NCBI GenBank assembly: GCA_045531455.1 | Contig: JAZSEA010000075.1 | Location: forward strand, 149,978-213,977 | Length of the DNA: 64,000 nucleotides | Origin: Eubacteriales bacterium | Lineage (GTDB): Bacteria > Bacillota > Clostridia > Oscillospirales > CAG-272 | Direction: 5' to 3' | Shown here: positions 41,852-57,503 of the stretch, piece after piece | Position numbering within the stretch: position 1 is the stretch's first letter | Layout: each line of letters opens with the position of its first letter | Translations under genes and position numbers: made by a program | Notes under the pieces: generated by a model | The model's input: only the letters and a program-made list of their open reading frames with translations | Database searches by the model: none | What the model was told of the DNA's origin: nothing

Positions 41852-41880
41852 TTGACAAACCGTGAATGAAGGTGTATAAT
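41852..41880 (+). promoter_or_regulatory. Sigma-A-type promoter of T-box leader 1
   Basis: TTGACA (41852-41857), a 17-nt spacer, then TATAAT (41875-41880). Confidence 0.75.
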
Positions 41881-41898
41881 ATACACAATTTAATAAAA

Positions 41899-42145
41899 GG
41901 CTTTGACGAAGACGGCAAGAAAGAATGTTTTCAGAGAGTTGGCGGTAGGTGCGAGACCAACATCAGGCTTTCGATAGCCCATCACTTCCGAGCCGGGGGA
42001 CCGAAAGTTCAACGAGTAGACTCCTCCCGTGATTACTGCGTTAAGGTATAGGGCTTGCCGGAGCCTGAAGTGCCGTCATATGACGGAATTTGAGTGGTAC
42101 CGCGAATTTGATTCGTCTCAAAGATTATTCTTTGAGACGATTTTT
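41899..42145 (+). promoter_or_regulatory. T-box riboswitch leader 1, proposed specifier AUC (Ile)
   Basis: K-turn base (GGC-UUUGAC-GAAG / CUUC-CGA-GCC), AGAGAG bulge, GGUGCGA distal loop and an AGUAGA...GCGUUA F-box. Stem III spans 42072-42085 and the T-box sequence AAUUUGAGUGGUACCGCG spans 42087-42104. The terminator hairpin at 42113-42140 is followed by UUUUU. Confidence 0.88.
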
Positions 42146-42219
42146 GTTTTATTACTCAACAATCAAAATTACAAGCACCCGGAATTGTGTTATGCCTTTG
42201 CGGCAAGAAAGGATCCATT

Positions 42220-44487
42220 ATGCAAAAGGACACACTTCAGAATCAAAAGCTTCTTGAGATCGCCAACAGAATCAAGGATATGCGCGAAATATCCGGATTT
42301 TCCGAGGAGGAAATGGCGAATCTTACACGAATCGATCTCGACGAGTACAAGAGGTACGAGGCGGGTGCAGAAGATTTCCCCTTCTCTTTTATTCACCGTT
42401 GCTCACAGGTATTCGGAATTGAGATGAACGATCTCCTCGAGGGTCGTTCCCCGAGACTCTCCTCTTATACCATTACAAGAAAAGGTATGGGTCGTGAGAC
42501 TGCACGTGAGGACGGCATAGAGATCTGTAACCTCGCGCCGAACTTTTACGGTAAAATCGCAGAGCCTTATTGGGTAAAATATGAATATTCGGAGAAGCTC
42601 CAGAATCAGCCTATAAATCTCACCACACACAGCGGACAAGAATTCGATATAGTACTCGAGGGATCTCTGAAGATCCAGGTTGGCGAGCACATAGAAGTTC
42701 TCAATGAAGGTGACAGTATCTTCTATAACAGCTCTACCCCGCACGGTATGATCGCTGTCGGCGGACGCGACTGTCTCTTCTGCGCAGTCGTTCTCCCCGG
42801 TGAAGAAACTGCTGAGCCCGAGGTTCGCAAGAGCATCGTTTCCGCCAGACAGACAGATAATCTTCTTATCAATAAATTTATCAAGACAACAGAAAACGCT
42901 GTCGGCACACTCACCGCTATAGATTTTGTTGACGAAAACAAATATAATTTCGCTTTTGATACGGTCGATGCTATTGCTGATAAGTACCCCGACAAGCTCG
43001 CAATGATCCATCTCGACCGCGATGAAAATGAAAGAAGATTCACTTTCGCGGAGATCAAGCGCGGTTCGGCTCAGGTCGCCAACTATTTCAAGTCTCTCGG
43101 AATCAAGCGCGGCGACAGAGTAATCGTCGTTCTCAAGAGACACTATCAGTTCTGGCTTACTATGCTTGCACTCCACAAGCTCGGAGCGATCGCAATTCCC
43201 GCCACCAATCAGCTAGTGTGTCACGACTTCGAGTACAGATTCAAGGCTGCCGGCGTAAGCGCAATAGTTTGCACAACCGACGGCGAAACTGCTGCTCACG
43301 CCGATGAAGCTGCTCGCGACTTCCCCGAGATCAAGAAGATCGCCGTTGGAGTCGAGCGCAAGGGTTGGCATAACTTCAATGAAGAATATCCTCTCTTCAG
43401 CAGTAAATTCCCCAGAACCGAGGACGCCCCCTGCGGAGACGATCCTATGGTTATGTTCTTCACCTCGGGAACAACCGGATATCCCAAGATCGCAACACAT
43501 TCTTATAAATATGCGCTTGGACATTTTGTTACAGCTAAATACTGGCACAATATCTCCCCCGATGGACTTCATCTTACCATTTCCGACACCGGATGGGGCA
43601 AGGCTCTTTGGGGCAAGCTTTACGGGCAGTGGATGTGTGAGGCTGCTGTATTCGTTTACGACTTCGACAGATTCGATGCTTCAAAGATCCTTCCTATGTT
43701 CGCTAAATACAACATCACTACATTCTGCGCGCCTCCTACAATGTACAGAATGTTCATCAAGGAAGATCTCTCAAAATACGACCTTTCCTCGATCAAGCAC
43801 GCTACGATAGCCGGAGAAGCCCTCAACCCCGAGGTCTTCAAGCAATTTGAGAACGCCACGGGACTCAAGCTTATGGAAGGCTTTGGTCAGACAGAGACAA
43901 CTCTTACCGTTGCAAACCTTGTCGGTATGAATCCCAAACCCGGTTCAATGGGTAAGCCTGTTCCCCTCTACGACGTTGATATTGTGTCTCCGGAAGGCGA
44001 CAGCGTTCCGGTCGGTGAAGTTGGCGAAATCGTTGTACACACCGACAAGAAGGTTCCTTGCGGTCTCTTCCTCGGTTACTACAGAGACGAGGAACAGACA
44101 AAAGAAGCTTGGCACGATGGAGTTTACCACACGGGCGACCTCGCTTGGCGAGATGAAGACGGACATTTCTGGTACGTCGGTAGAAAGGATGACGTCATCA
44201 AATCCTCCGGATACCGTATCGGCCCGTTTGAGATCGAAAACGTCATCATGGAACTTCCATACGTTCTCGAGTGCGGTGTATCCGCAGAGCCCGATGAGAT
44301 TCGCGGACAGATCGTTAAGGCAAGCATAGTTCTTACCAAGGGAACCGAGCCAACAGAAGAACTCAAGAAGGCAATTCAGTCCTACGTCAAGAGCCACACC
44401 GCTCCTTACAAGTACCCGAGAAAGATAGTATTCAGAAACGAGCTTCCCAAAACTATCAGCGGAAAGATCCAGCGTAACAAGCTCTGA
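42220..44487 (+). CDS. Three-domain fusion: XRE-type HTH + cupin + AMP-forming (medium/short-chain type) acyl-CoA synthetase, paralog 1
   Basis: Start at MQKDTL (ATG at 42220, AAAGGA RBS). HTH in residues ~10-70, cupin (GDSIFYNSSTPHGM) and adenylate-forming motifs FFTSGTTGYPK, GFGQTETT, YHTGDLAWRDEDGHFWYVGRKDDVIKSSGYRIGPFEIE and PKTISGKIQR. Confidence 0.88.
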   Translation: MQKDTLQNQKLLEIANRIKDMREISGFSEEEMANLTRIDLDEYKRYEAGAEDFPFSFIHRCSQVFGIEMNDLLEGRSPRLSSYTITRKGMGRETAREDGIEICNLAPNFYGKIAEPYWVKYEYSEKLQNQPINLTTHSGQEFDIVLEGSLKIQVGEHIEVLNEGDSIFYNSSTPHGMIAVGGRDCLFCAVVLPGEETAEPEVRKSIVSARQTDNLLINKFIKTTENAVGTLTAIDFVDENKYNFAFDTVDAIADKYPDKLAMIHLDRDENERRFTFAEIKRGSAQVANYFKSLGIKRGDRVIVVLKRHYQFWLTMLALHKLGAIAIPATNQLVCHDFEYRFKAAGVSAIVCTTDGETAAHADEAARDFPEIKKIAVGVERKGWHNFNEEYPLFSSKFPRTEDAPCGDDPMVMFFTSGTTGYPKIATHSYKYALGHFVTAKYWHNISPDGLHLTISDTGWGKALWGKLYGQWMCEAAVFVYDFDRFDASKILPMFAKYNITTFCAPPTMYRMFIKEDLSKYDLSSIKHATIAGEALNPEVFKQFENATGLKLMEGFGQTETTLTVANLVGMNPKPGSMGKPVPLYDVDIVSPEGDSVPVGEVGEIVVHTDKKVPCGLFLGYYRDEEQTKEAWHDGVYHTGDLAWRDEDGHFWYVGRKDDVIKSSGYRIGPFEIENVIMELPYVLECGVSAEPDEIRGQIVKASIVLTKGTEPTEELKKAIQSYVKSHTAPYKYPRKIVFRNELPKTISGKIQRNKL

Positions 44488-44530
44488 TTCACTATATTTG
44501 TGAACACTTTGTGAATTATCCAAAAACTCC

Positions 44531-44559
44531 TTGACAACACAAGTAATTTGTGATATTAT
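44531..44559 (+). promoter_or_regulatory. Sigma-A-type promoter of T-box leader 2
   Basis: TTGACA (44531-44536), a 17-nt spacer, then TGaTATTAT (extended -10, 44551-44559). Confidence 0.72.
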
Positions 44560-44581
44560 TTATTTATATTTTTTAATAAAA

Positions 44582-44836
44582 GGCAATGATAGGGATGTCT
44601 CGATAATAGCCTGCTTCAGAGAGCCGTCGTTTGGTGCGAGACGGTGCAAAAAAATCGAGTTCGTCGCCCTGGAGCCGAGGAAAGGAAAGCTGATCTTTCA
44701 GTCGTAGAGTTCCTCCGTAAAGACTGCGTTAATGTCATAACAAGCGGCGCACACGCGCAATTTGAGTGGTACCGCGGGTATAGAATTCAAGTTCTGCTCG
44801 TCTCAAGATCTATTCTTGGGACGAGCCTGTTTTTTT
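44582..44836 (+). promoter_or_regulatory. T-box riboswitch leader 2, proposed specifier GUC (Val)
   Basis: K-turn base (GGC-AAUGAU-AGGG / CCCU-GGA-GCC), CUCGAU/AUCGAG helix, AGAGAG bulge, GGUGCGA distal loop and a GCGUUA F-box. The T-box sequence CAAUUUGAGUGGUACCGCG spans 44758-44776. The terminator at 44796-44826 is followed by UUUUUUU. Confidence 0.88.
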
Positions 44837-44847
44837 GGAGGTAAATC

Positions 44848-47130
44848 ATGGATAACATTTTTGAAATAGATAAACAGATAAAAGCCATGGCGGGAAGAAT
44901 TTCTGCTTTGCGTGAGATCGAAGGCTATTCTCCCGAATATATGGCTGAGCAGACAGGAGTTTCTGTTTCTGAATATCTCGACTGCGAGTCGGGAAGATCT
45001 GATTTGACGTTTGCATTTCTGTTCAGATGTGCATCCGCGCTCGGCATCGACGTTACAGAGATCATTGAAGGTACCGCTCCCCGACTAAAATCCTATACGC
45101 TCACTCGAAAAGGTAAAGGACAGAGGATCGAGCAAGCACATGGAATGACGTACTACAACATCGCACATTCCTTCGCAAACAGGACCTCGAACCCTCTGTA
45201 CGTTCATTGCGAATATTCTGCTAAAGCAGAAAATTCACCTATCGCCGTAACAACACACGAGGGTCAGGAATGCGATATCGTTATTAAGGGTCGCCTGAAG
45301 GTTCAGGTGGGCGAGCACACAGAGATACTTGAAGAAGGCGACAGCATTTACTATGATAGCTCAACCCCCCACGGTATGATCGCCATTGGCGGTGAAGATT
45401 GCTATTTCTACGCAATAGTGCTTCTTCCCGATGAAAATTCGGAAAAGGCCGCCAACGTCACTCTTGCCGCTACCCCCGCGAAGGTCAGAGACACCGAGAC
45501 ACGAGTATACAGCAAGTTTATTACTACCGAAGAAGATGAAAACGGCGCGCCCGTTTCGATCACATATAAGGGTGAAAACAGCTTCAACTTTGCTTTCGAC
45601 GTAGTTGACACTCTCGGCAGATCAAAACCTGATAAGCTGGCAATTATGCACATAGCCGAAGACGGAACCGAAAAACGCATTACATTCTCACAAGTAAAGC
45701 GTGCTTCCGCTCAATGTGCAAATTACTTTAAATCTCTCGGCATCAAGCGCGGTGACCGTGTAATGCTCGTTCTCAAGCGCAGATATCAGTTCTGGTACGC
45801 TATGATCGGACTTCACAAGCTTGGAGCCATTGCAATTCCCGCAACTAATCAGCTTAAAGAGCATGATTACGAATACAGATTCAACACCGCAGGCGTTAAG
45901 GCAATAATTTGCGTTGATGACGATTACGTTATCGAGCAAGCGGAAGCTGCCCTTGCAAAATGCCCCGATGTATCAGTAAGAATTCTGGTTGGTAAAGAGC
46001 GCGAAGGTTGGAAAAATTTCAACGAGGAATACACACTCTTCAGCAGTCACTTTGACAGAAACGACGATTCTCCCTGCGGCGACGATCCTATGCTTATGTA
46101 TTTCACATCGGGCACATCGGGATATCCCAAGATCGCGCTTCACAATTACAAATACCCCCTCGGTCATTTCCATACCGCGAAATATTGGCATTGCGTAAAT
46201 CCCGACGGTCTGCATCTTACAATATCCGACACCGGATGGGCTAAGGCAATGTGGGGTAAGCTTTACGGTGCTTGGCTCTGCGAGGCGGCAATATTCGTAT
46301 ATGACTTCGACAGATTTGATGCATCCAAGATACTTCCCCTTTTCCGCAAGTACAATATTACCACATTCTGTGCTCCTCCTACGATGTACAGAATGATAAT
46401 CAAGGAAGACCTTTCGAAATACGATCTCAGCTCTATCGAACACGCTACGATCGCGGGCGAGGCTCTCAACCCCGAAGTATTCCGTCAGTTTGAGAAGCAA
46501 ACAGGACTCAAGATCATGGAAGGCTTCGGTCAGAGTGAGACTACTCTTGTCATCGGTAACCTTGTAGGTAAAGCTCACAAGATCGGTTCGATGGGTAAAC
46601 CCGTTCCTACTTTTGACGTTGATCTTGTTGATGCAGACGGCAATTCGGTTGGCATCGGTGACCCCGGCGAGATCGTTATCAATACTAAGAACGGTGCACC
46701 TTGCGGACTCTTCTGCCAGTACTACAACGCCCCCGAAAAGACCGCAGAGGTCTGGCACGACGGTGTTTATCACACAGGCGACCTTGCTTGGCGAGACGAA
46801 GATGGCTTCTTCTGGTACGTTGGCAGAGTTGACGACGTTATCAAGTCTTCCGGATACCGCATCGGTCCGTTCGAGATCGAAAGTGTCATTATGGAACTCC
46901 CCTACGTTCTCGAATGCGGCGTTTCTGCTGCCCCCGACGAGATTCGCGGACAGATCGTCAAGGCAAGCATAGTTCTTACAAAAGACACAGAGCCAACCGA
47001 AGAGCTCAAGAAAGATATTCAGAGCTACGTTAAAAAGCGTACAGCTCCGTATAAATATCCGAGACTCGTCGAGTTCAAGACTGAATTACCCAAAACAACA
47101 AGCGGAAAGATCATCCGCAGCAAACTATAA
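44848..47130 (+). CDS. Three-domain fusion: XRE-type HTH + cupin + AMP-forming acyl-CoA synthetase, paralog 2
   Basis: Same architecture and motifs as paralog 1 (YFTSGTSGYPK, GFGQSETT, YHTGDLAWRDEDGFFWYVGRVDDVIKSSGYRIGPFEIE, PKTTSGKIIR). GGAGG RBS. By eye, high identity to paralog 1 throughout. Confidence 0.9.
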   Translation: MDNIFEIDKQIKAMAGRISALREIEGYSPEYMAEQTGVSVSEYLDCESGRSDLTFAFLFRCASALGIDVTEIIEGTAPRLKSYTLTRKGKGQRIEQAHGMTYYNIAHSFANRTSNPLYVHCEYSAKAENSPIAVTTHEGQECDIVIKGRLKVQVGEHTEILEEGDSIYYDSSTPHGMIAIGGEDCYFYAIVLLPDENSEKAANVTLAATPAKVRDTETRVYSKFITTEEDENGAPVSITYKGENSFNFAFDVVDTLGRSKPDKLAIMHIAEDGTEKRITFSQVKRASAQCANYFKSLGIKRGDRVMLVLKRRYQFWYAMIGLHKLGAIAIPATNQLKEHDYEYRFNTAGVKAIICVDDDYVIEQAEAALAKCPDVSVRILVGKEREGWKNFNEEYTLFSSHFDRNDDSPCGDDPMLMYFTSGTSGYPKIALHNYKYPLGHFHTAKYWHCVNPDGLHLTISDTGWAKAMWGKLYGAWLCEAAIFVYDFDRFDASKILPLFRKYNITTFCAPPTMYRMIIKEDLSKYDLSSIEHATIAGEALNPEVFRQFEKQTGLKIMEGFGQSETTLVIGNLVGKAHKIGSMGKPVPTFDVDLVDADGNSVGIGDPGEIVINTKNGAPCGLFCQYYNAPEKTAEVWHDGVYHTGDLAWRDEDGFFWYVGRVDDVIKSSGYRIGPFEIESVIMELPYVLECGVSAAPDEIRGQIVKASIVLTKDTEPTEELKKDIQSYVKKRTAPYKYPRLVEFKTELPKTTSGKIIRSKL

Positions 47131-47136
47131 TTTAAC

Positions 47137-47811
47137 ATGGAAAACAAACGATTAACACTATTTGCAGGTCATTACGGAAGCGGCAAGACCAACGTCGCTC
47201 TCAATTTCGCATATCGAGTGCGTTCTATGGGATACGAAACCGTTATCGCGGATATTGACACCGTTAACCCATATTTCAGAACCAAAGACAGCGAGGCAGA
47301 ATTGAAAGCAGCGGGTATCGAGCTTATCGCATCCGAATTTGCGGGCTCAAACGTTGATCTTCCCGCCCTTCCTGCCGCGATGTACGATATAATCTTTGAT
47401 TCCGATAAGCACGCTGTCATAGATATAGGCGGCGATGACCGTGGAGCTTTTGCACTAGGACGTTACACCCCGGAAATCCTGCGAGAAAACAATTACAATA
47501 TGCTGATGGTAATCAACATGTACCGTCCGCTGACGAAGACACCCGAAGATACTATTGAGATCCTTCACGAGATCGAAGCGGCGTCGGGAATCCCGTTTAC
47601 GGGACTTGTCAACAATTCAAATCTCGGACCGTTTACCGATATGGGAACTTTGACTGATTCATTTGAATATGCCAGAACTGTCTCTGAAATGTCTGGATTA
47701 CCAATCGTTGCAACTACTTGTCCCGATTCCAATAAGTTTGAAGGTACTATTGATTTCGGTCCCGAAAACGGCACCGTTATTAAACTCAAACTACAAAAGA
47801 AAATTATATAA
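47137..47811 (+). CDS. P-loop NTPase of unknown role (MinD/ParA/CooC-like superfamily resemblance)
   Basis: N-terminal Walker A FAGHYGSGKTN and a Walker-B-like VIDIGGDD. 224 aa, 6 nt after the preceding stop. Confidence 0.6.
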   Translation: MENKRLTLFAGHYGSGKTNVALNFAYRVRSMGYETVIADIDTVNPYFRTKDSEAELKAAGIELIASEFAGSNVDLPALPAAMYDIIFDSDKHAVIDIGGDDRGAFALGRYTPEILRENNYNMLMVINMYRPLTKTPEDTIEILHEIEAASGIPFTGLVNNSNLGPFTDMGTLTDSFEYARTVSEMSGLPIVATTCPDSNKFEGTIDFGPENGTVIKLKLQKKII

Positions 47812-47823
47812 AGGAGAAAAACT

Positions 47824-48030
47824 ATGGCTAAATTAACCTTTAATATTGAAAAATGCAAGGGTTGCGGACTATGCGTTTCTGCTTGTCCCAAGCACCTGCT
47901 TATTGTATCCAAAACAAAGATCAATCAGAAGGGCCACTACGTTGCGGAGATCACAGATATGAGCTCCTGCATCGGATGCGCATTTTGTGCTACAATGTGT
48001 CCCGATTGCATAATTAAGGTTGAAAAGTAA
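47824..48030 (+). CDS. 2-oxoacid:ferredoxin oxidoreductase delta subunit (2x[4Fe-4S] ferredoxin)
   Basis: CKGCGLCVSACP and CIGCAFCATMCP motifs. 68 aa, directly upstream of the alpha subunit. Confidence 0.85.
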   Translation: MAKLTFNIEKCKGCGLCVSACPKHLLIVSKTKINQKGHYVAEITDMSSCIGCAFCATMCPDCIIKVEK

Positions 48031-48043
48031 GGAGGAAACGATT

Positions 48044-49102
48044 ATGTCCGAGAAAGTATTAATGAAGGGCAACGAAGCCATCGCAGAAGCCGCTATAATG
48101 GCGGGATGCCGTCACTATTTCGGCTACCCAATCACCCCCCAGACTGAAATTGCCGCTTATATGGCCAAGAGAATGCCCAAGATAGGCGGAACCTTCCTCC
48201 AGGCTGAAAGTGAAGTTGCCGCTATCAATATGGTAATCGGTGTTGCAGCCGCAGGAAAAAGAGTAATGACCTCGAGCTCCAGCCCCGGAATCTCGCTCAA
48301 GGCAGAAGGAATATCCTATCTCGCCGGTTGCGATCTTCCCGCACTCGTTATCAACGTACAGCGCGGAGGACCCGGTCTCGGCGGAATTCAGCCTTCGCAG
48401 TCGGATTATTTCCAGGCTACAAAGGGCGGCGGTCACGGTGACTACAGAAATATCGTTCTCGCTCCCGCTTCTGTTCAGGAAATGGCTACACTCACGGTAA
48501 AAGGCTTTGATCTTGCCGATAAATACCGTATGGTAGCGATGATCCTTGCAGACGGTACAATGGGTCAGATGATGGAGCCGGTTTCTCTCGACGTTTCGGA
48601 AATTGCTCAGTATGAAAAGCCTTGGGCGGTTACCGGTACAAAACTCGAAAGAAATCACAACATCATCAACTCACTTTCTCTCGTATCCGAAGAGCTTGAA
48701 AGATTCAACATCGAAAGATATAACAAGTACAAGACCGTTGAAGAAAAAGAGGTTCTTGTAGAAGAGTACATGACCGAGGATGCAGACATCGTTCTCGTTG
48801 CTTACGGTATTGCTGCACGCGTATCAAAGAACGCTATTGCTGCTGCCCGCGCGGAAGGCATCAAGGTAGGTCTCGTTCGTCCCATTACTCTCTGGCCCTT
48901 CCCGAAGGCAACACTTGAGAAGCTTTCTCACACTGCAAAAGCATTTATCACGGTTGAGATGTCTATGGGTCAGATGATCGAGGACGTTGAGCTTGCAACG
49001 CGTTGCCGCAAGCCCGTACTCCTTTGCAACCGCTCGGGCGGTATGATCCCCACCCCCGAAGCAGTTCTTGCAAAAATCAAAGAAGCAGGAGGAATTGAAT
49101 AA
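48044..49102 (+). CDS. 2-oxoacid:ferredoxin oxidoreductase alpha subunit (VorB/KorA-type)
   Basis: LMKGNEAIAEAAI..GYPITPQTEI...QAESEVAA motifs. The ATG at 48044 has an AAGGAGGAA RBS. Confidence 0.88.
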   Translation: MSEKVLMKGNEAIAEAAIMAGCRHYFGYPITPQTEIAAYMAKRMPKIGGTFLQAESEVAAINMVIGVAAAGKRVMTSSSSPGISLKAEGISYLAGCDLPALVINVQRGGPGLGGIQPSQSDYFQATKGGGHGDYRNIVLAPASVQEMATLTVKGFDLADKYRMVAMILADGTMGQMMEPVSLDVSEIAQYEKPWAVTGTKLERNHNIINSLSLVSEELERFNIERYNKYKTVEEKEVLVEEYMTEDADIVLVAYGIAARVSKNAIAAARAEGIKVGLVRPITLWPFPKATLEKLSHTAKAFITVEMSMGQMIEDVELATRCRKPVLLCNRSGGMIPTPEAVLAKIKEAGGIE

Positions 49103-49845
49103 TGGTAGTATTTGATAAGCCGCACGCTCTGACAGATGCACCTCTGCATTACTGTCCCGGCTGTACCCACGGTATAATCCACAGGCTCGTTGCAGAAGCT
49201 ATTGACGAGTTCGGAATTGAAGGAAAAACGATCGGCATCGCTCCCGTAGGATGCTCGGTTATGGCATATAATTATTTTGCTTGCGATATGGTTCAGGCTG
49301 CTCACGGTAGAGCTCCCGCTGTTGCTACTGGTGTAAAGCGCGCAAATCCCGATAATATCGTATTTACATATCAAGGTGACGGCGACCTCGCGTCGATCGG
49401 TATGGCAGAAACAGTACACGCCGCTACAAGAGGCGAAAACATCACAATAATATTTGTTAACAATGCGATTTACGGAATGACAGGCGGTCAGATGGCTCCT
49501 ACTTCTCTTCCCGGCCAGGTCACACAGACCTCTCCCTACGGCAGAGATATTTCCACCGCAGGATATCCTATCCGTGTTTGCGAGATGCTCGCACAGCTTG
49601 ACGGTGCCGCATATCTTGAAAGAGTTGCTGTCAACAACGTAAAGAACGTCCGTAAGGCGAAAGCGGCTATCAAAAAAGCTTTCGAGAACCAGATAAACGG
49701 CGTTGGCTTCTCGCTAATCGAGGTTGTTTCCACCTGCCCCACGAACTGGGGACTTACTCCAGAGGCGGCACTTCAGTTCGTTGAAGAAAAGATGATTCCT
49801 TACTATCCGCTCGGCGTATACAAGGACAAGACAAAGGAGGCGTAA
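49102..49845 (+). CDS. 2-oxoacid:ferredoxin oxidoreductase beta subunit (TPP-binding)
   Basis: YCPGCTHG N-terminal cysteines and the GDGD TPP/Mg motif (YQGDGDLASIG). TAATG overlap with alpha. Confidence 0.88.
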   Translation: MVVFDKPHALTDAPLHYCPGCTHGIIHRLVAEAIDEFGIEGKTIGIAPVGCSVMAYNYFACDMVQAAHGRAPAVATGVKRANPDNIVFTYQGDGDLASIGMAETVHAATRGENITIIFVNNAIYGMTGGQMAPTSLPGQVTQTSPYGRDISTAGYPIRVCEMLAQLDGAAYLERVAVNNVKNVRKAKAAIKKAFENQINGVGFSLIEVVSTCPTNWGLTPEAALQFVEEKMIPYYPLGVYKDKTKEA

Positions 49846-49848
49846 ATC

Positions 49849-50385
49849 ATGAAAACAAATCAGATTTTGATTGCAGGTTTTGGCGGTCAGGGCGTCCTCT
49901 TCACAGGTAAAATGCTTGCTTATAAGGGTATGTATGAGGGTAAGGAGGTCAGTTGGCTTCCTTCCTACGGTCCTGAAATGAGAGGCGGTACCGCAAACTG
50001 CAGCGTTATCCTCAGCGATACTCCCGTCGGATCTCCCATCGTATCCAATCCCGACATACTCCTTGTAATGAATCTTCCTTCGCTCGACAAATACGAAAAC
50101 TCTGTTCCTGCAGGCGGAAAGATCTTCGTTGACTCTACCTTCATCGACAGAAAGGTAAACCGCAACGACGTAGACGTTTACTATATTCCCGCAACAAAGA
50201 TGGCTTCCGATGCGGGAGTTCCCACTCTCGCAAATATGATCCTTTTAGGAAAGGTCATTAAGGAAACCGGTGTTGTCAGTCTTGACGGAATGAGAGCTAT
50301 GTTTGAAAAAATCATCTCTGCAAAAAGACAGAATCTTATCGACGTAAATCTCCAGACTATCGAGCTCGGCTACAATTTTCAATAA
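49849..50385 (+). CDS. 2-oxoacid:ferredoxin oxidoreductase gamma subunit
   Basis: ILIAGFGGQGVLFTGK...YGPEMRGG typical of gamma subunits. Confidence 0.88.
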   Translation: MKTNQILIAGFGGQGVLFTGKMLAYKGMYEGKEVSWLPSYGPEMRGGTANCSVILSDTPVGSPIVSNPDILLVMNLPSLDKYENSVPAGGKIFVDSTFIDRKVNRNDVDVYYIPATKMASDAGVPTLANMILLGKVIKETGVVSLDGMRAMFEKIISAKRQNLIDVNLQTIELGYNFQ

Positions 50386-50406: not shown

Positions 50407-51471
50407 ATGGATATCAGAATAGAAAAGATCGCAACACCCAAGCAGAAGCCCGATGAGTCCTCCTTGGGATTCGGTCAGTATTTTACAGATCATATGTTTA
50501 TCATGGATTACACACGCGCAAAGGGATGGCATGATGCAAGAATCGTTCCTTTCGGCAACCTTTCGCTACATCCCGCGTGTACAGTATTCCATTACGGTGC
50601 TGAAATTTTCGAGGGTATGAAGGCTTACAGAACCGCTGACGGCTCCATTCAGCTTTTCAGACCCGAGCAGAACTTTGCCCGTATGAATTCCTCCGCAGAA
50701 AGAATGAGACTGCCTCTTATCGACGAGGAATTTGCTCTTAAGGCACTTACGGAGCTTATCAAGATCGATGCTGATTGGGTTCCTCACGCTCCCGGAACCT
50801 CTCTCTACATCAGACCTTTCCTCTTTGGTGCAGACCCCAAGCTCGGAGTTCACTCGATCGACCGTTCCGTATTTATCATCATTCTCTCCCCTGTAGGATC
50901 TTACTACAAGGAGGGCATTAACCCCGTCAAGATCATGATCGAAACCGAGGATGTTCGCGCCGTAAGAGGCGGAACAGGTTACACCAAGTGCGGCGGTAAC
51001 TACGGTGCCTCCAACAGAGCAGGTGAAAAGGCCGAGCAGGCAGGATACTCGCAGGTCCTTTGGCTCGACGGTGTTGAGAGAAAGTATATCGAAGAAGTCG
51101 GCGCGATGAACGTAATGTTCAAGATCGGCGACGAGATCGTTACTCCTGCCCTTACCGGCTCGATCCTTCCCGGTATCACCAGAAACTCTATTCTCCAGAT
51201 TCTTCGTGATGAGGGGGCTAAGGTTTCCGAAAGACTTCTTTCCATCGACGAGCTTATCGAAGCACTTGACAACGGCACTCTCGAAGAAGGATGGGGATGC
51301 GGAACTGCCGCTGTAGTTTCCCCCATCGGTCAGCTTTTCTACAATGGCAAAACTTATACAATCAATAACGGCAAGATAGGTGCTACAACTCAGAAGCTTT
51401 ACGACACACTCACAGGAATTCAGTGGGGCAAGATTGAAGATACAAGAAATTGGGTATATCCTATCAAATAA
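50407..51471 (+). CDS. ilvE: Branched-chain-amino-acid aminotransferase (fold-type IV, long form)
   Basis: 354 aa. FGQYFTDHMF..., YGAEIFEGMKAYR (catalytic Lys region), VRAVRGGTG..K.GGNY, EEVGAMNVMF and LPGITR motifs. Confidence 0.9.
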   Translation: MDIRIEKIATPKQKPDESSLGFGQYFTDHMFIMDYTRAKGWHDARIVPFGNLSLHPACTVFHYGAEIFEGMKAYRTADGSIQLFRPEQNFARMNSSAERMRLPLIDEEFALKALTELIKIDADWVPHAPGTSLYIRPFLFGADPKLGVHSIDRSVFIIILSPVGSYYKEGINPVKIMIETEDVRAVRGGTGYTKCGGNYGASNRAGEKAEQAGYSQVLWLDGVERKYIEEVGAMNVMFKIGDEIVTPALTGSILPGITRNSILQILRDEGAKVSERLLSIDELIEALDNGTLEEGWGCGTAAVVSPIGQLFYNGKTYTINNGKIGATTQKLYDTLTGIQWGKIEDTRNWVYPIK

Positions 51472-51489: not shown

Positions 51490-52895
51490 ATGAAAAAAAT
51501 ATTCGTCTCTGACTCAACCCTCAGAAATAATTCAGGAGTTTCCGAAACTCCTCTGTCATTCAAGCAACGAATGGAAATTGCCCGTATGCTTGACAGAATG
51601 AAGGTTGACGTAATCGAATTGGCTCCGATCGAGAACGAAAAGATCGACGTTCTTCTCGCAAGAACGATAATCTCATTTCTCAATCATGCCAAAATCGCCA
51701 TACCCGTAGGATTTGACGAAAACGCAATAGATACTGCAGCAAACGCTATAAGTGACGCATCCAAAGCACGTATTCAGATCAGAGTACCTACCTCCCCTGT
51801 ACAAATGGAGTATTTTTGCAGAAGAAAACCTCCGGTTGTACTCGAACTCATCGGAAATCTTGTTAAAAAAGCAGCGCTTACGGGTGCGGAAGTAGAATTC
51901 GTGGCAGAAGATGCTACACGTGCTGAAATGCCTTTCCTCGCAGATGCAATAAATGCTGCTATGATAAACGGCGCAACTGTAATAACTCTTTCCGACGTAG
52001 CTGCAAAAATGATCCCCGATGAATTCTCTTCTTTCGTAAACGAAGTATTCACCGCCGTTCCCGCACTCTCTAACGTCAGAACCGGCGTTGAATGTTCAAA
52101 CGAGTTGGCGCTTGCACTCGCAAACATTGCGGCTGTTCTTAACTCTGATATTTCCGAGGTTAAATGCGCCGCTTGCGCAGACCATATGCTTTCTGTAACG
52201 GATTTCACTAAATTCGTTTCTACACGCGGACTTGAGCTTAACATCGAATCTTCTATAAGAACCACAGAATGCAGAAGGATCATCTCTCAGATCGATTGGA
52301 TACTCAACTCCAAGAAAGAGATTGTTAAAACCGCAGATGACGTTTCCCCCGAAAGCGGTATCATTCTTCGTGCAGGTGATGACATCGGCACGGTTACTGC
52401 CGCTGTTGCAAAGCTTGGATACGAATTATCCGAAGAAGATGCTTCCCGCGTATACGAGGAATTCTGCCGAGTTGCAGAAAAGAAGACAGTAGAAGCTGCG
52501 GAGCTTGACGCCATTGTCGCAAGTGCCGCGCTCCAGGTAGCTCCCACCTATATCCTCAAGAGCTACGTAATCAACAGCGGAAACGTGATTAACGCAACCG
52601 CGCAGGTCACGCTTGAGAAGAATGGCGAGATCATAAACGGTGTCAGCGTAGGCGACGGTCCTATCGATGCCGCGTTCATCGCGATCGAGCAGATACTCGG
52701 ACACCACTATGAGCTTGATGATTTTCAGATCAAAGCAGTTACCGAAGGACGCCAGGCCCTCGGATCTGCTCTCGTTAAGCTTCGCGCAGGTAACAAGATC
52801 TATTCAGGAAACGGTATTTCAACCGATATTATCGGAGCCAGCATACGTGCATACATCAGTGCGCTCAACAAGATCGTATATGAGGAGAATCAGAT

Positions 52896-52899
<4 letters not shown>
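51490..52899 (+). CDS. 2-isopropylmalate-synthase-like protein with degenerate catalytic motifs and an intact LeuA regulatory (dimerisation) domain
   Basis: TIM-barrel region is alignable to LeuA, but RDGEQ reads RNNSG, DTVG reads DVAA and HxH(D) reads ECSNE. The C-terminal GDGPIDAAF...GRQALGS...GISTDIIGASIRAYISALNKI is conserved. Confidence 0.8.
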
Positions 52900-55424
<2,525 letters not shown>

Positions 55425-55512: not shown

Positions 55513-56007
55513 ATGAACGTCAGGCTTGCTCAAATAGATGACCTTAACAAAATACTTGAAATATACGAAAGCGCACGAAGATTTATGCGCGAAGCCGGAA
55601 ACCCCAATCAGTGGGGAGTTGCCAATCCTCCCAGATCACGTACGTTAGAAGATATTGCAACACAAAAGCTTCACGTCGTTACCGAAAACGAAGATATTCT
55701 CGCTGTTTTCTTTTTTGACATTGCCGATGATCCGACTTACGCAAAGATCTATGACGGACAATGGATGAATGAAAAACCTTACGCGGTTATTCACAGAATC
55801 GCCGTTTCGGATGCCGCGAGAGGCAAGGGGGTTGCGGGATTCTGCTTCGGCTATGCTTACAGTAAATGCAAAAATATAAAAATTGATACGCATATAGATA
55901 ATATACCGATGCAAAAGGCTCTTGCAAAACACGGTTTCACTAAATGCGGAACGATATTTCTTGCAAACGGCGATGCGAGAATTGCTTTTCAAAAAACGGA
56001 GGAATAA
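55513..56007 (+). CDS. GNAT-family N-acetyltransferase
   Basis: 164 aa. The acetyl-CoA motif region reads RIAVSDAARGKGVAGF. Confidence 0.8.
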   Translation: MNVRLAQIDDLNKILEIYESARRFMREAGNPNQWGVANPPRSRTLEDIATQKLHVVTENEDILAVFFFDIADDPTYAKIYDGQWMNEKPYAVIHRIAVSDAARGKGVAGFCFGYAYSKCKNIKIDTHIDNIPMQKALAKHGFTKCGTIFLANGDARIAFQKTEE

Positions 56008-56009
56008 CA

Positions 56010-57503
56010 ATGAGTACCAAGAGACCGAACGTCCTGTTCATTCTGACTGATGATCAAAGATATGACACTATTCACGCTTTAGGCAACAATGAGATATCCA
56101 CACCTAATATTGATAGACTTGTTGAGCGCGGAGCTGCTTTTACAAACGCACATATCCCCGGTGGAACAGCTTCCGCAGTATGCATGCCGAGCCGCGCAAT
56201 GATCAATTCATCCCGTACGCTTTTCAATCTTGAACAAAACGGTAAAGAGATTCCTGAATGTGACGTGACAATGTGTCAGGCTTTCAGAGGTGCCGGGTAT
56301 TCCTGCCACGGCATAGGTAAATGGCATAACGGTACTGATAGCTACACAAGATCATTCACAAGCGGTGAAAATATCTTCTTTGGTGGAATGTGGGATCATT
56401 GGAACGTCCCTGTATGTGACTACAGAGCAGACGGAAATTACGATTGCGAGGTTCCGTTTGTCCCGAACTTCTCTGGAAATCAGATCCCCGTTCACGTTCT
56501 CGCCGACAAGATCCATCCCGGTGTCCACTCTACCGAGCTGTTTACAGCAAGTGCCGTTGATTTTATCAATAGCTATGAATCGGAAGAGCCCTTCTTCGTT
56601 TATCTTTCCTATCTTGCGCCGCACGACCCCCGTACGATGCCCGAGAAGTACCGTACAATGTACAAAGCCGAAGACATTACTCTTCCCCAAAACTTTATGG
56701 AAATGCCCGCATTCAGCTTTGGTTGGGCTGACAGAGGTCGTGACGAAGCAGTAGCCTCCTTCCCTCGCAATCCCGATGAGATAAAGCAACATATTGCAGA
56801 CTACTACGCAATGATCAGCCATATTGATGACAACGTCGGAAGGCTTATTGATGCGCTTGAATCAAAGGGCATCCTGGATGACACAATAATTGTCTTCTGC
56901 GGAGATAACGGTCTTGCAATCGGTCAGCACGGACTGATGGGCAAACAGAACGTATATGAGCACAGCGTACATATCCCGCTCCTTGTCAGCGGCCCCCGCA
57001 TTCCCGCGGGACTCAAGCTTGATCAATACGTTTATCTGCTTGACGTATATCCCACGCTCTGCGATCTCTGTAACGTCGAAATTCCTTCCACAGTCGAAGG
57101 AAAGAGTTTCTCCGAAATGTTTACTGACAATGAACTTGTGACGCGTGAGGACCTTTATTTCGCCTTCCAGGCAAGGATACGCGGTATATCTGACGGAAAA
57201 TACAAGCTCATCGAGTATCGAACCGACAGACTGAAAATGACCCAGCTTTTCGATCTTGAAAAAGATCCTTGGGAAACCCATAATTTCTATGACTTCAACG
57301 GCTATGATGAGATCGTGGCAAGACTCCGCAAGCGTATGCTTGAGTACCGAGAGGAATGGAACGAGGACTGTCATATTTACGGCAGACAATTCTGGGAACA
57401 GTACGAAAAGTATGAAGCCGCAGAGGTTCACGGTGTTGACAAGCCTAAAGGAACCTCTATGCTCAATCAGACCAAGGAATGGTCCAAATCTAAGAAGAAC
57501 TAA
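56010..57503 (+). CDS. Cys-type sulfatase (formylglycine-dependent arylsulfatase family)
   Basis: NVLFILTDDQRYD and the CMPSR (C-x-P-x-R) maturation motif. Start at MSTKRPN (56010), 3 nt after the GNAT stop. The track start at 55944 is an extension. Confidence 0.88.
   Translation: MSTKRPNVLFILTDDQRYDTIHALGNNEISTPNIDRLVERGAAFTNAHIPGGTASAVCMPSRAMINSSRTLFNLEQNGKEIPECDVTMCQAFRGAGYSCHGIGKWHNGTDSYTRSFTSGENIFFGGMWDHWNVPVCDYRADGNYDCEVPFVPNFSGNQIPVHVLADKIHPGVHSTELFTASAVDFINSYESEEPFFVYLSYLAPHDPRTMPEKYRTMYKAEDITLPQNFMEMPAFSFGWADRGRDEAVASFPRNPDEIKQHIADYYAMISHIDDNVGRLIDALESKGILDDTIIVFCGDNGLAIGQHGLMGKQNVYEHSVHIPLLVSGPRIPAGLKLDQYVYLLDVYPTLCDLCNVEIPSTVEGKSFSEMFTDNELVTREDLYFAFQARIRGISDGKYKLIEYRTDRLKMTQLFDLEKDPWETHNFYDFNGYDEIVARLRKRMLEYREEWNEDCHIYGRQFWEQYEKYEAAEVHGVDKPKGTSMLNQTKEWSKSKKN

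Follow-up and report, generated by a model that had tools for sequence, protein, structure and literature searches.

Two genes in the DNA analysed here (a 64,000-nucleotide stretch from a Eubacteriales bacterium, hereafter the window) encode proteins in which an XRE-type helix-turn-helix (HTH) domain and a cupin barrel precede a complete acyl-CoA synthetase (ACS), and this fusion is real, neither an artefact nor a chance arrangement. Sequence comparisons strongly suggest that each gene product is an amino-acid-specific branched short-chain acyl-CoA synthetase, which would catalyse the first step of a route leading from branched-chain fatty acids back to the branched-chain amino acids. It is likewise strongly indicated that paralog 1 is turned on by uncharged tRNA-Ile and paralog 2 by uncharged tRNA-Val, each via its own T-box.

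The fusion genes and their enzyme half

The two paralogs share 64% identity, and both open reading frames lie where the original prediction had placed them, with the following features:

42220-44487, + strand: paralog 1 (755 aa), HTH-cupin-acyl-CoA synthetase, Ile-gated; ribosome-binding site AAAGGA 5' of the ATG; orthologs of 754-756 aa
42247-42444, + strand: XRE-type HTH domain of paralog 1 (aa 10-75); Pfam HTH_19 at 27.4 bits, slightly below the cut-off of 30.2; helices in the AF2 model
42535-42795, + strand: cupin barrel of paralog 1 (aa 106-192) with the invariant residues H137, E141 and H175; Pfam Cupin_2
42925-44484, + strand: acyl-CoA synthetase half of paralog 1 (aa 236-755), AMP-binding and AMP-binding_C; matches to 3ETC/MacsMa and the MbcS model
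44848-47130, + strand: paralog 2 (760 aa), Val-gated; HTH at aa 10-76, cupin at about aa 107-193, ACS at about aa 240-760

A Pfam check of the boundaries confirmed the predicted domain order (XRE-type HTH, cupin, complete synthetase) for both proteins. The scores for paralogs 1 and 2 are 220 and 213 bits for AMP-binding, 74 and 73 bits for AMP-binding_C, and 40 and 50 bits for Cupin_2 (gathering cut-off 27); the HTH of paralog 2 matches HTH_3 at 28.7 bits (cut-off 23). The motifs GDSI(F/Y)Y(N/D)SSTPHGMIA and FGQ(T/S)ETT also read as originally quoted. The same full-length architecture was recovered in 80 of the 80 best loci from species-representative genomes, which agrees with the earlier argument against an assembly or frameshift artefact. 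In a scan of such genomes, relatives were encoded in 588 of 599 pattern-matched stretches, i.e., in at least 588 species-representative genomes, and the full-length fusion was present in at least 120 protein clusters. The original prediction could name no characterised example of the fusion, and our literature search found none either.

Elsewhere, relatives of the HTH-cupin part (183-195 aa) exist as separate proteins. The stand-alone gene lies 3-41 bp 5' of a 550-553-aa ACS gene in five of five contexts, and immediately precedes the gene for this synthetase in 73 of 76 metagenome loci; at two loci (L010 and L011) the two genes are collinear and share a frame, and in several phyla the gene is kept as a separate neighbour of the ACS gene. 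It is well supported that the fusion joins a conserved gene pair, and we infer that the N-terminal HTH-cupin module is the fused form of the small protein encoded just 5' of the same synthetase in other phyla.

The synthetase half of paralog 1 was aligned end to end with MacsMa, the medium-chain acyl-CoA synthetase of Methanosarcina acetivorans (PDB 3ETC; 623 bits, E = 4e-186), and is its close homolog. The best NCBIfam model for both proteins is MbcS (NF047394), with 446 and 438 bits, below the equivalog cut-off of 850, indicating that the synthetase is a relative of MbcS and not its ortholog. The segment FGQTETT aligns with FGQTETV of MacsMa, and the acetate-pocket Trp, carried by true acetyl-CoA synthetases in WWQTETG, is absent. 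The predicted ligase is probably not an acetate enzyme, as had been anticipated from this motif and as its best matches indicate. Assignment of the enzyme half to the ANL superfamily, in a MacsMa/MbcS/ACSM-like subgroup probably acting on short and branched chains, is well supported. Group-specific differences between the Ile and Val groups include G460A and G475A in the DTGW[G/A]KA segment (paralog 2). The preferred substrate of MacsMa is 2-methylbutyrate (PMC10455477), while S. aureus MbcS favours isobutyrate and 2-methylbutyrate (PMC13584741); these preferences match the Ile and Val specifiers described below. Based on specifier and homology, paralog 1 is most likely a 2-methylbutyrate--CoA ligase, and paralog 2 most likely an isobutyrate--CoA ligase. 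No HTH-cupin front end has been described for either known enzyme: the 3ETC chain begins about 50 residues ahead of the matched ACS region, and the MbcS paper contains neither "cupin" nor "helix-turn-helix" (PMC13584741). Another difference is that MbcS serves fatty-acid primer synthesis, whereas the gene context in the window suggests amino-acid synthesis.

Promoters, T-box leaders and the operon

The control elements and the genes downstream of paralog 2 are as follows:

41852-41880, + strand: promoter of paralog 1; -35 TTGACA at 41852-41857, 17-nt spacer, extended -10 TGTATAAT, -10 at 41875-41880
41894-42149, + strand: T-box leader 1; Ile specifier AUC at 41981-41983; terminator hairpin and T-run at about 42113-42149
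44531-44559, + strand: promoter of paralog 2; -35 TTGACA at 44531-44536, TGa-TATTAT, -10 at 44554-44559
44577-44836, + strand: T-box leader 2; Val specifier GUC at 44663-44665; terminator hairpin and T-run at about 44797-44836
47137-47811, + strand: conserved P-loop protein (224 aa), next gene of the operon; weak CbiA/ParA-like match
47824-48030, + strand: 68-aa 2x[4Fe-4S] ferredoxin, delta-type oxidoreductase subunit; same position in the related locus L001
48044-50385, + strand: 2-oxoisovalerate-type 2-oxoacid:ferredoxin oxidoreductase; Pfam POR_N, PFOR_II, TPP_enzyme_C and POR
48044-49102, 49102-49845 and 49849-50385, + strand: its alpha (VorB), beta and gamma subunits
50407-51471, + strand: branched-chain amino acid aminotransferase IlvE; NCBIfam equivalog, 477 bits against a cut-off of 307; Pfam Aminotran_4

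The layout TTGACAA-N17-TGnTAnAAT is kept in 72 promoters of the paralog-1 type (W1), and that of the paralog 2 promoter in 48 of the W2 type. The presence of an RNA-level T-box ahead of both genes, part of the original prediction, was borne out by matches to RF00230: leader 1 is matched over its full length with 88.8 bits (E = 2.9e-19), slightly below the gathering score of 93, leader 2 exceeds that score with 96.3 bits, and the orthologous leaders in L001 have 99.5 and 94.6 bits. The UGGU tRNA-acceptor-binding sequence GGUGGUACCGCG and terminator hairpins with T-runs were read in both leaders. Using the cmscan alignment and the Stem-I model, we read the specifiers in 82 sources (the window, L001 and 80 genome loci). 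An Ile specifier (AUC) was found in 74 of 75 paralog-1 leaders, and a Val specifier (GUA or GUC) in all 48 paralog-2 leaders. The promoters look strong and constitutive; therefore, gene-level regulation would fall to the T-boxes. These leaders are canonical and resemble those of other branched-chain amino acid genes that T-boxes control in Firmicutes, in that the specifier corresponds to the amino acid made downstream; however, the genes under such control are synthetases, transporters and de novo enzymes, as opposed to the acid-activating salvage ligases predicted here. A literature search found no paper reporting T-box control combined with such ligases.

There is strong evidence that paralog 2 heads an operon also holding the oxidoreductase and IlvE. 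VorB scores 545 bits against an NCBIfam cut-off of 399. The cassette was found again with different flanks at the related loci L001, L177 and L179, where the gene for the P-loop protein occupies the same position; this protein has no relative in NCBIfam or PDB. Salvage of 2-methylbutyrate to Ile and of isobutyrate to Val is a well-supported reading of these predicted functions. The synthetase would convert the branched acid, with ATP and CoA, to the acyl-CoA, the VorB-type oxidoreductase with its ferredoxin would reductively carboxylate the acyl-CoA to the 2-oxo acid, and IlvE would convert the latter to the branched-chain amino acid.

The HTH-cupin module and the operator searches

The family profile of the HTH matches PezA, DdrO, SinR and the 434 repressor at 1e-6 to 1e-4, and the AF2 model has a five-helix domain with a mean pLDDT of 87 (helices of paralog 1 at residues 2-25, 29-35, 40-47, 55-65 and 69-74). 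Helix 3 reads I-D-L-D-E-Y-K-R-Y-E-A-G in paralog 1 and S-V-E-E-Y-x-x-Y-E across the family, with E41-E42 at its head. The domain is strongly acidic, with a family mean net charge of -6.7, compared to +3 for PuuR (hand count), +1 for PezA, -2 for DdrOC and -4 for the non-DNA-binding HppE. Positions 40, 44 and 45, where bases are canonically contacted, differ among orthologs. It should be noted that Glu residues are able to read cytosines, and an acidic helix is therefore no proof against DNA binding. The mean pairwise identity is 0.65 for the HTH, 0.73 for the cupin and 0.75 for the ACS N-domain; the HTH is subject to purifying selection, and 10 of the 15 positions that distinguish the Ile from the Val group fall in the HTH or in the linker joining it to the cupin. 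Given a conservation near that of the enzyme and the paralog-specific residues, the module is probably functional and no relic. The selection on the HTH and the clustering of paralog-specific residues in it would also fit two DNA targets, and were counted against a role at the protein level, as was the homology to DNA-binding XRE-cupin repressors, including the H/G/E/H residues of PuuR.

The original observation that the cupin has no HxH motif is literally true, but a set of potential ligand residues, H137-x3-E141...H175, is kept and essentially invariant (124 of 124 fused and at least 92 of 94 unfused proteins). This set aligns with the segments of HppE that bear the metal (iron) ligands of that enzyme, and occurs in the validated repressor PuuR; since PuuR has the same residues, the set does not discriminate an enzyme from a regulator. 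The module profile matches HppE with E = 3e-10 over positions 8-179, and in Foldseek searches HppE was best at 1e-14, followed by Psf4, HEPD and MPnS, so that the best solved-structure matches across the whole N-terminal module are enzymes. Both the fold and the 2-His-1-Glu positions of HppE-type HTH-like plus cupin metalloenzymes are present in the module, and the acidic helical domain is a further likeness to the non-haem-iron phosphonate enzymes HppE, HEPD and MPnS. However, identity to HppE is only about 20%, and the phosphonate-biosynthesis context of these enzymes is absent: the neighbours are ACS, VOR, IlvE and LeuA-like genes.

The original prediction that the fusions autoregulate their own promoters is not supported, in view of the acidic HTH with variable DNA-facing positions and of the searches for an operator. 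Approximately 120 fusion promoters have in common only an A-tract, TTGACAA, the extended -10 and the T-box start, with no operator among these elements, and no conserved element was found in the 230 nt upstream of them. At -20..+25, inverted repeats score the same as in control T-box promoters. In the window, the palindrome GTGTATAATATACAC overlaps the paralog 1 promoter and an inverted repeat, ACACAA..TTGTGA, lies in the paralog 2 spacer; neither is kept in L177 or L179, and the window palindromes are already lost in a relative at 93% protein identity. Unfused operons of the Bacteroidales type, on the other hand, have an operon-specific conserved 27-bp palindrome, TTGCACAC-N11-GTGTGCAA, with 31 strict matches, all 31 of which lie 90-155 nt upstream of the HTH-cupin gene. 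This palindrome could be a candidate operator of the unfused HTH-cupin protein. It is situated 39-70 nt upstream of the -7 box, not at -20..+10, and its half-site is invariant, yet helix 3 of the unfused proteins is hypervariable. The same palindrome is absent from 1.07 Mb of fused loci.

Role of the module and known systems

Since MacsMa and MbcS function with no such module, it is accessory or regulatory. The explanation we favour, at slightly less than an even chance, is that the module works at the protein level, as a ligand sensor controlling the enzyme to which it is fused. A small molecule would be bound by the cupin, perhaps via a metal held by H137/E141/H175, with the end products Ile and Val as a first guess and the acid or acyl-CoA as alternatives. 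The acidic helical domain would provide a dimerisation or contact surface, and the module would tune the ATP-consuming synthetase, e.g., by feedback inhibition, and would not repress its own promoters. In the full-length AF2 model the docking of the module on the enzyme is not confident (pTM 0.59), and the linkers 76-92 and 195-212 have pLDDT below 50, i.e., the module is flexibly tethered.

The XRE-cupin transcription factors (PuuR, PauR, PsdR, ErfA, DbuR and NceR) have the same two-domain layout, an N-terminal XRE-type HTH followed by Cupin_2; PuuR has the cupin residues H..G.E...H in common with the module, at an identity of only 16%. Such regulators control adjacent metabolic genes (PMC7901475) and adjoin them, as the stand-alone relatives of the module do. 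However, they are separate proteins of about 180-200 aa, whereas the window module is fused to a 520-aa enzyme; their recognition helix is polar or basic, compared to E-E-Y in helix 3 of a strongly acidic HTH; and their palindromic operators of 15-25 bp lie at about -20..+10, where none is conserved in the fusion promoters. BirA combines a winged HTH with an adenylate-forming biotin-ligase fold, i.e., an N-terminal DNA-binding-type domain fused to an enzyme. The fusions resemble trigger enzymes such as BirA, the parallel drawn in the original prediction, NadR and PutA by analogy only, because the folds differ (XRE HTH and ANL in the window) and BirA acts at a defined operator in its target promoter, while none was found at the fusion promoters.

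One alternative, a relaxed form of the original prediction, is a protein that is both ligase and transcription factor, with the HTH binding DNA as a dimer, the cupin ligand or acyl-adenylate state as co-effector, and its own or other promoters (e.g., those of de novo ilv/leu or acid uptake genes) as targets. We consider it unlikely, although the XRE-HTH and cupin fold, the homology to PuuR, the location of the unfused gene where a local regulator would be, the 27-bp palindrome 5' of the unfused operons, and purifying selection on an HTH in which paralog-specific residues cluster all speak for it, and XRE-cupin regulators are known to repress adjoining metabolic genes via palindromes of the above length (PMC7901475; PMC12724383). 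These points are opposed by the failure to find a conserved operator in or upstream of the fusion promoters, the absence of the Bacteroidales-type palindrome from fused loci, the loss of the window palindromes in close relatives, the acidic HTH with E-E heading helix 3 and variable base-contact positions, and the location of the palindrome outside -20..+10, with an invariant half-site despite a hypervariable helix 3; moreover, amino-acid-specific control is already given by the T-boxes. A specific form of this model, in which the acidic XRE head of ANL-family trigger enzymes binds DNA elsewhere than at their own promoters and coordinates salvage versus de novo Ile/Val synthesis, with the 27-bp palindrome as the ancestral operator, is in our estimate rather improbable.

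The flexible tether, regulation by T-boxes in fused lineages with the palindrome limited to unfused ones, and dimerisation of XRE-cupin proteins (PMC7901475) are consistent with a structural appendage, either a dimerisation or scaffold domain (e.g., one that links the ligase with the oxidoreductase or P-loop protein) or what is left of a former regulator that the T-box has made redundant and that is slowly decaying. This is quite improbable, in that the module is conserved nearly like the enzyme across hundreds of species, its putative ligand or metal residues are invariant, the paralog-specific conserved residues point to a specific function, and stand-alone forms are retained next to ACS genes in several phyla. 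Finally, the cupin might be a second, HppE-like metal-dependent catalytic domain of a bifunctional enzyme acting on the acid, acyl-adenylate, acyl-CoA or a neighbouring intermediate, as suggested by the structural matches to enzymes (HppE first), the alignment of invariant H137/E141/H175 with HppE segments, the similarly acidic HTH, and the fact that consecutive enzymes are typically fused or tightly coupled, as the module is with a single enzyme. We regard this as highly improbable: the HppE-like residues do not imply catalysis, because the non-enzyme PuuR has them; the salvage route has no step needing an extra enzyme, and its achiral isobutyrate branch has the same module; MacsMa and MbcS need no such domain to form the CoA thioester; and the low identity to HppE comes with no phosphonate genes at the locus.

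The requirement of rumen and gut Clostridia for isobutyrate, 2-methylbutyrate and isovalerate is long established, and it is a classical finding of rumen microbiology that such acids are reductively carboxylated to give amino acids. The branched-acid requirement now gains a concrete, widespread and testable gene set, consisting of two predicted T-box-gated ligases, a VorB-type oxidoreductase with its ferredoxin, and IlvE, which bears directly on the use of "isoacids" as feed supplements and on how branched-chain acids are turned over in the human gut. The partnership of a PuuR/HppE-like HTH-cupin protein with a MacsMa-type ligase, adjacent or fused across phyla, appears to be unstudied. Should the module prove to be an allosteric sensor, this would represent a new mode of control for an adenylate-forming enzyme; should it bind DNA, the fusions would form a new trigger-enzyme class. 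Either way, thousands of proteins labelled just "AMP-binding protein" or "cupin domain-containing protein" could obtain a better annotation.

Architecture and origin of the fusion proteins

Two genes in the window encode an XRE-type helix-turn-helix (HTH), a cupin and an acyl-CoA synthetase (ACS) in a single polypeptide. The coordinates of both open reading frames in the original prediction are exact, and the domain order that it claimed is reproduced by Pfam, which places four domains in each protein.

Coding sequences and Pfam domains of the two fusions
42220-44487, + strand: paralog 1, 755 aa
44848-47130, + strand: paralog 2, 760 aa
about aa 14-75, both paralogs: XRE-type HTH
about aa 135-190, both paralogs: Cupin_2
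about aa 252-621, both paralogs: AMP-binding
about aa 671-749, both paralogs: AMP-binding_C

The HTH of paralog 1 scores 27.4 bits, slightly below the Pfam cut-off of 30.2, and that of paralog 2 scores 28.7 bits, exceeding a cut-off of 23. The HTH fold is confirmed by a family profile that matches PezA, DdrO, SinR and the 434 repressor, and by an AF2 model of residues 1-200 (mean pLDDT 87), in which five helices are followed by a beta-barrel; the full-length AF2 model, based on an alignment of only 9 sequences, has a pTM of 0.59 and disordered linkers, and shows no confident docking of the N-terminal domains onto the enzyme. The paralogs are 64% identical overall, with only 38% identity in the HTH. 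Over residues 236-755 the match to PDB 3ETC is end to end (623 bits, E = 4e-186). This structure is MacsMa of Methanosarcina acetivorans, an enzyme with 2-methylbutyrate as its preferred substrate (PMC10455477). The top NCBIfam model for the ACS half is MbcS (446 bits, not reaching the equivalog cut-off of 850), which prefers isobutyrate and 2-methylbutyrate (PMC13584741).

The possibility that the fusion is an artefact, raised with the original prediction, is ruled out: the same length and domains recur in at least 120 protein clusters (70% identity or more), 588 of the 599 stretches matched in a scan of species-representative genomes encode relatives, and full-length fusions are present in 80/80 of the best loci of that scan. 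The carriers are Acutalibacteraceae, Oscillospiraceae, Ruminococcaceae, Christensenellaceae and unclassified Clostridia from ruminant and human guts. Databases name the fusions just "AMP-binding protein" or "acetyl-CoA synthetase"; an exact look-up of the window's own protein returned no record, and most hits of a word-indexed search with residues 1-200 were pieces of these fusions cut off at contig ends.

When residues 1-235, the HTH-cupin module, were searched exhaustively, 1816 relatives emerged, including many stand-alone proteins of 183-195 aa with 35-45% identity, which carry annotations as XRE-family regulators or as cupin proteins. Five contexts of such stand-alone genes were examined, among them Muribaculaceae, Prolixibacteraceae and Bacillota; in each, a 550-553-aa AMP-binding gene on the same strand follows the stand-alone gene after 3-41 bp, and it is the only neighbour that the five have in common. 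Of 80 further metagenome loci, 76 allowed a judgement, and in 73 of these an ACS gene directly follows the stand-alone gene. In two loci, L010 and L011, the separate genes line up with the fusion in both order and reading frame, the gap being a stop codon plus 15 bp. Because the stand-alone gene lies directly 5' of the ACS gene and such pairs are collinear and in frame, we regard the window proteins as fusions of a conserved two-gene module.

T-box leaders, promoters and the search for an operator

Upstream of each paralog lie a separate strong sigma-70-type promoter and a T-box leader that includes a terminator. Four leaders served to build a Stem-I covariance model, which detected 154 T-box stems in 86 sources: the window, the related locus L001, 80 loci from genomes, and four unfused loci, in which the HTH-cupin gene stands alone upstream of a separate ACS gene. 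The specifiers, taken from the alignment fitted to this model, are AUC (Ile) in 74 of 75 paralog-1-type leaders, and GUA or GUC (Val) in all paralog-2-type leaders (48/48).

T-boxes of a third kind, whose specifier is a Leu codon (CUC or CUG), recur near fusion genes in 18 cases (L015, L026, L027, L028, L044, L053, L057, L065, L086 and L088; on the minus strand, L060, L062, L070, L074, L079, L082, L083 and L091). At several loci, an unfused AMP-binding gene sharing 25-28% identity with the fusions is found about 2.5 kb downstream of this T-box; these genes may represent a Leu/isovalerate branch. The Stem-I model finds no Leu T-box in the window. Between the terminator of the first T-box and the ribosome-binding site of paralog 1 (window ~42165-42215), a block CAAGCACCCGGA..GTGTT.TGCC precedes a small TGCC...GGCA hairpin, and both are kept in L177 and L179, the syntenic close relatives of the window.

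The fusions had been proposed to autoregulate their own promoters in the manner of BirA, and the promoters argue against it. Aligned on the -35 box, 72 paralog-1-type and 48 paralog-2-type promoters have in common only an A-rich tract, TTGACAA, an extended -10 (TGTGnTAnAAT) and the T-box start; the next 230 nt upstream show nothing beyond A-tracts or the end of the upstream gene. For validated XRE-cupin repressors, the binding site is at about -20 to +10 (PMC12724383, PMC7901475). The best inverted-repeat scores between -20 and +25 are 4.37 for paralog-1-type and 4.52 for paralog-2-type promoters, near the 4.07 of control T-box promoters from the same loci. The window's palindromes, moreover, are disrupted already in a relative with a 93% identical protein: neither GTGTATAATATACAC, which overlaps the -10 of promoter 1, nor ACACAA-N5-TTGTGA in the spacer of promoter 2 is kept in the relatives whose proteins are 93% and 82% identical or across the wider set, and both were rejected as operators.

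A direct repeat, GTGAAC-ACTTT-GTGAATTATCC, lies at window 44500-44525, 10-30 nt upstream of the promoter 2 -35 box. As an operator, the GTGAA-N6-GTGAATTATCC block was likewise rejected; it is kept only in the closest two or three relatives, and in 1/48 of the wider set.

The role of the HTH-cupin module

We tentatively favour a protein-level sensor as the role of the module, for several reasons. The module is kept one-to-one with the enzyme, whether fused or encoded immediately upstream on the same strand; it is accessory, since MacsMa and MbcS are active without it (PMC10455477, PMC13584741); its putative ligand residues are invariant; and wherever a T-box is present, the module comes without an operator. 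XRE-type antitoxins, which bind DNA as well as a partner protein, offer an analogy; the HTH of PezA was among the matches of the family profile and NCBIfam scans, as were, weakly, HipB/MqsA-type antitoxin models.

That the module instead binds DNA at other targets seems rather unlikely to us. It is homologous to real repressors, and its cupin residues H, G, E and H are also found in PuuR. It should be noted that an HppE-like metal triad was for this reason dropped as a marker of a non-DNA-binding enzyme, as the same residues occur in PuuR, a validated repressor. The HTH is under purifying selection (mean pairwise identity 0.65 versus 0.73 for the cupin), and 10 of the 15 positions at which the Ile group differs from the Val group fall in the HTH and the HTH-cupin linker, which would also be in keeping with DNA binding. 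The chemistry of the HTH points the other way, as it is acidic, and positions 40, 44 and 45, which we take to be base-contacting by the 434-repressor register, are variable even between close orthologs. Helix 3 of the family reads S-V-E-E-Y-x-x-Y-E-A-G.

Net charge of the HTH
Fused family members: -6.7 (range -10 to -3)
Stand-alone family members: -5.6
PuuR, DNA-binding: +3 (hand count)
PezA, DNA-binding: +1
DdrOC, DNA-binding: -2
HppE, no DNA binding: -4

A candidate for a DNA target comes from unfused Bacteroidales-type operons, upstream of which we found a 27-bp palindrome, TTGCACAC-N11-GTGTGCAA (L099-L134 and others, e.g., L106 2386-2412). All 31 strict matches in 392 kb are placed 90-155 nt ahead of the start codon of the HTH-cupin gene, with none elsewhere, and such confinement to one type of operon is the mark of a dedicated regulator. 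The half-site, however, is invariant, whereas the adjacent helix 3 is hypervariable, with no co-variation between the two in the unfused loci, and the palindrome is located 39-70 nt upstream of a TAnnTTTG box, a spacing typical for activators, not repressors; the HTH-cupin protein is one candidate reader. In 1.07 Mb of fused loci the palindrome had 0 strict matches and only scattered relaxed ones, and was rejected as an operator there.

The downstream operon and a predicted salvage route

The genes 3' of paralog 2 follow with hardly any intergenic space.

Genes downstream of paralog 2
47137-47811, + strand: first gene, 224-aa P-loop protein with a GSGKT Walker A motif
downstream: 68-aa 2x[4Fe-4S] ferredoxin
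downstream: 2-oxoacid:ferredoxin oxidoreductase (VOR) alpha, beta and gamma; alpha is VorB (545 bits, cut-off 399)
downstream: IlvE (477 bits, cut-off 307)

L001 has the same cassette between unrelated flanks, and in L177 and L179 it is syntenic. In the proposed route, a branched acid would be converted to its acyl-CoA, reductively carboxylated to the 2-oxo acid, and transaminated to the amino acid. Rumen bacteria are classically known to run such a conversion. In the enzyme half, G460A and G475A, both within DTGW[G/A]KA, are the only strict differences that set the Ile group apart from the Val group; should this segment line the acyl pocket, Ala in the Val group would be consistent with a smaller acid.

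The P-loop gene always has the second fusion on one side and the ferredoxin/VOR genes on the other (window, L001, L177 and L179). Its product has only a weak CbiA/ParA-like match, with no relative in NCBIfam or PDB, and may be an accessory or maturation factor. Further downstream, a LeuA-like gene (51490-52899, HMGL-like and LeuA_dimer) has its stop overlapped by the start of an 842-aa ORF (52896-55424, + strand), in which a xylose-isomerase-like TIM barrel (AP_endonuc_2, aa 21-242) precedes AMP-binding and AMP-binding_C; this ORF is a further unusual fusion, and its ACS portion shares about 26% identity with the one in paralog 1. It is followed by a 164-aa GNAT acetyltransferase (55513-56007, + strand) and a sulfatase (55944-57503, + strand). 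Some acyl-CoA synthetases are acetylated and inactivated by GNATs.

The original prediction could name no characterised example of the fusion, and literature searches likewise turned up none, nor anything specific on T-box-controlled acyl-CoA synthetases or the salvage cassette. The kinds of component are all known (an ANL ligase, an XRE-cupin module, a T-box, VOR/IlvE). The conserved partnership of module and ligase, together with its fusion, appears to be undescribed, as do the Ile/Val-specific T-box gating of acid-activating ligases and the split between lineages, with the palindrome in unfused loci versus the T-box in fused loci. From gene context, homology and the T-box specifiers, we infer with good support that both paralogs are T-box-gated, amino-acid-specific branched-acid CoA ligases, which would open the salvage of Ile and Val.
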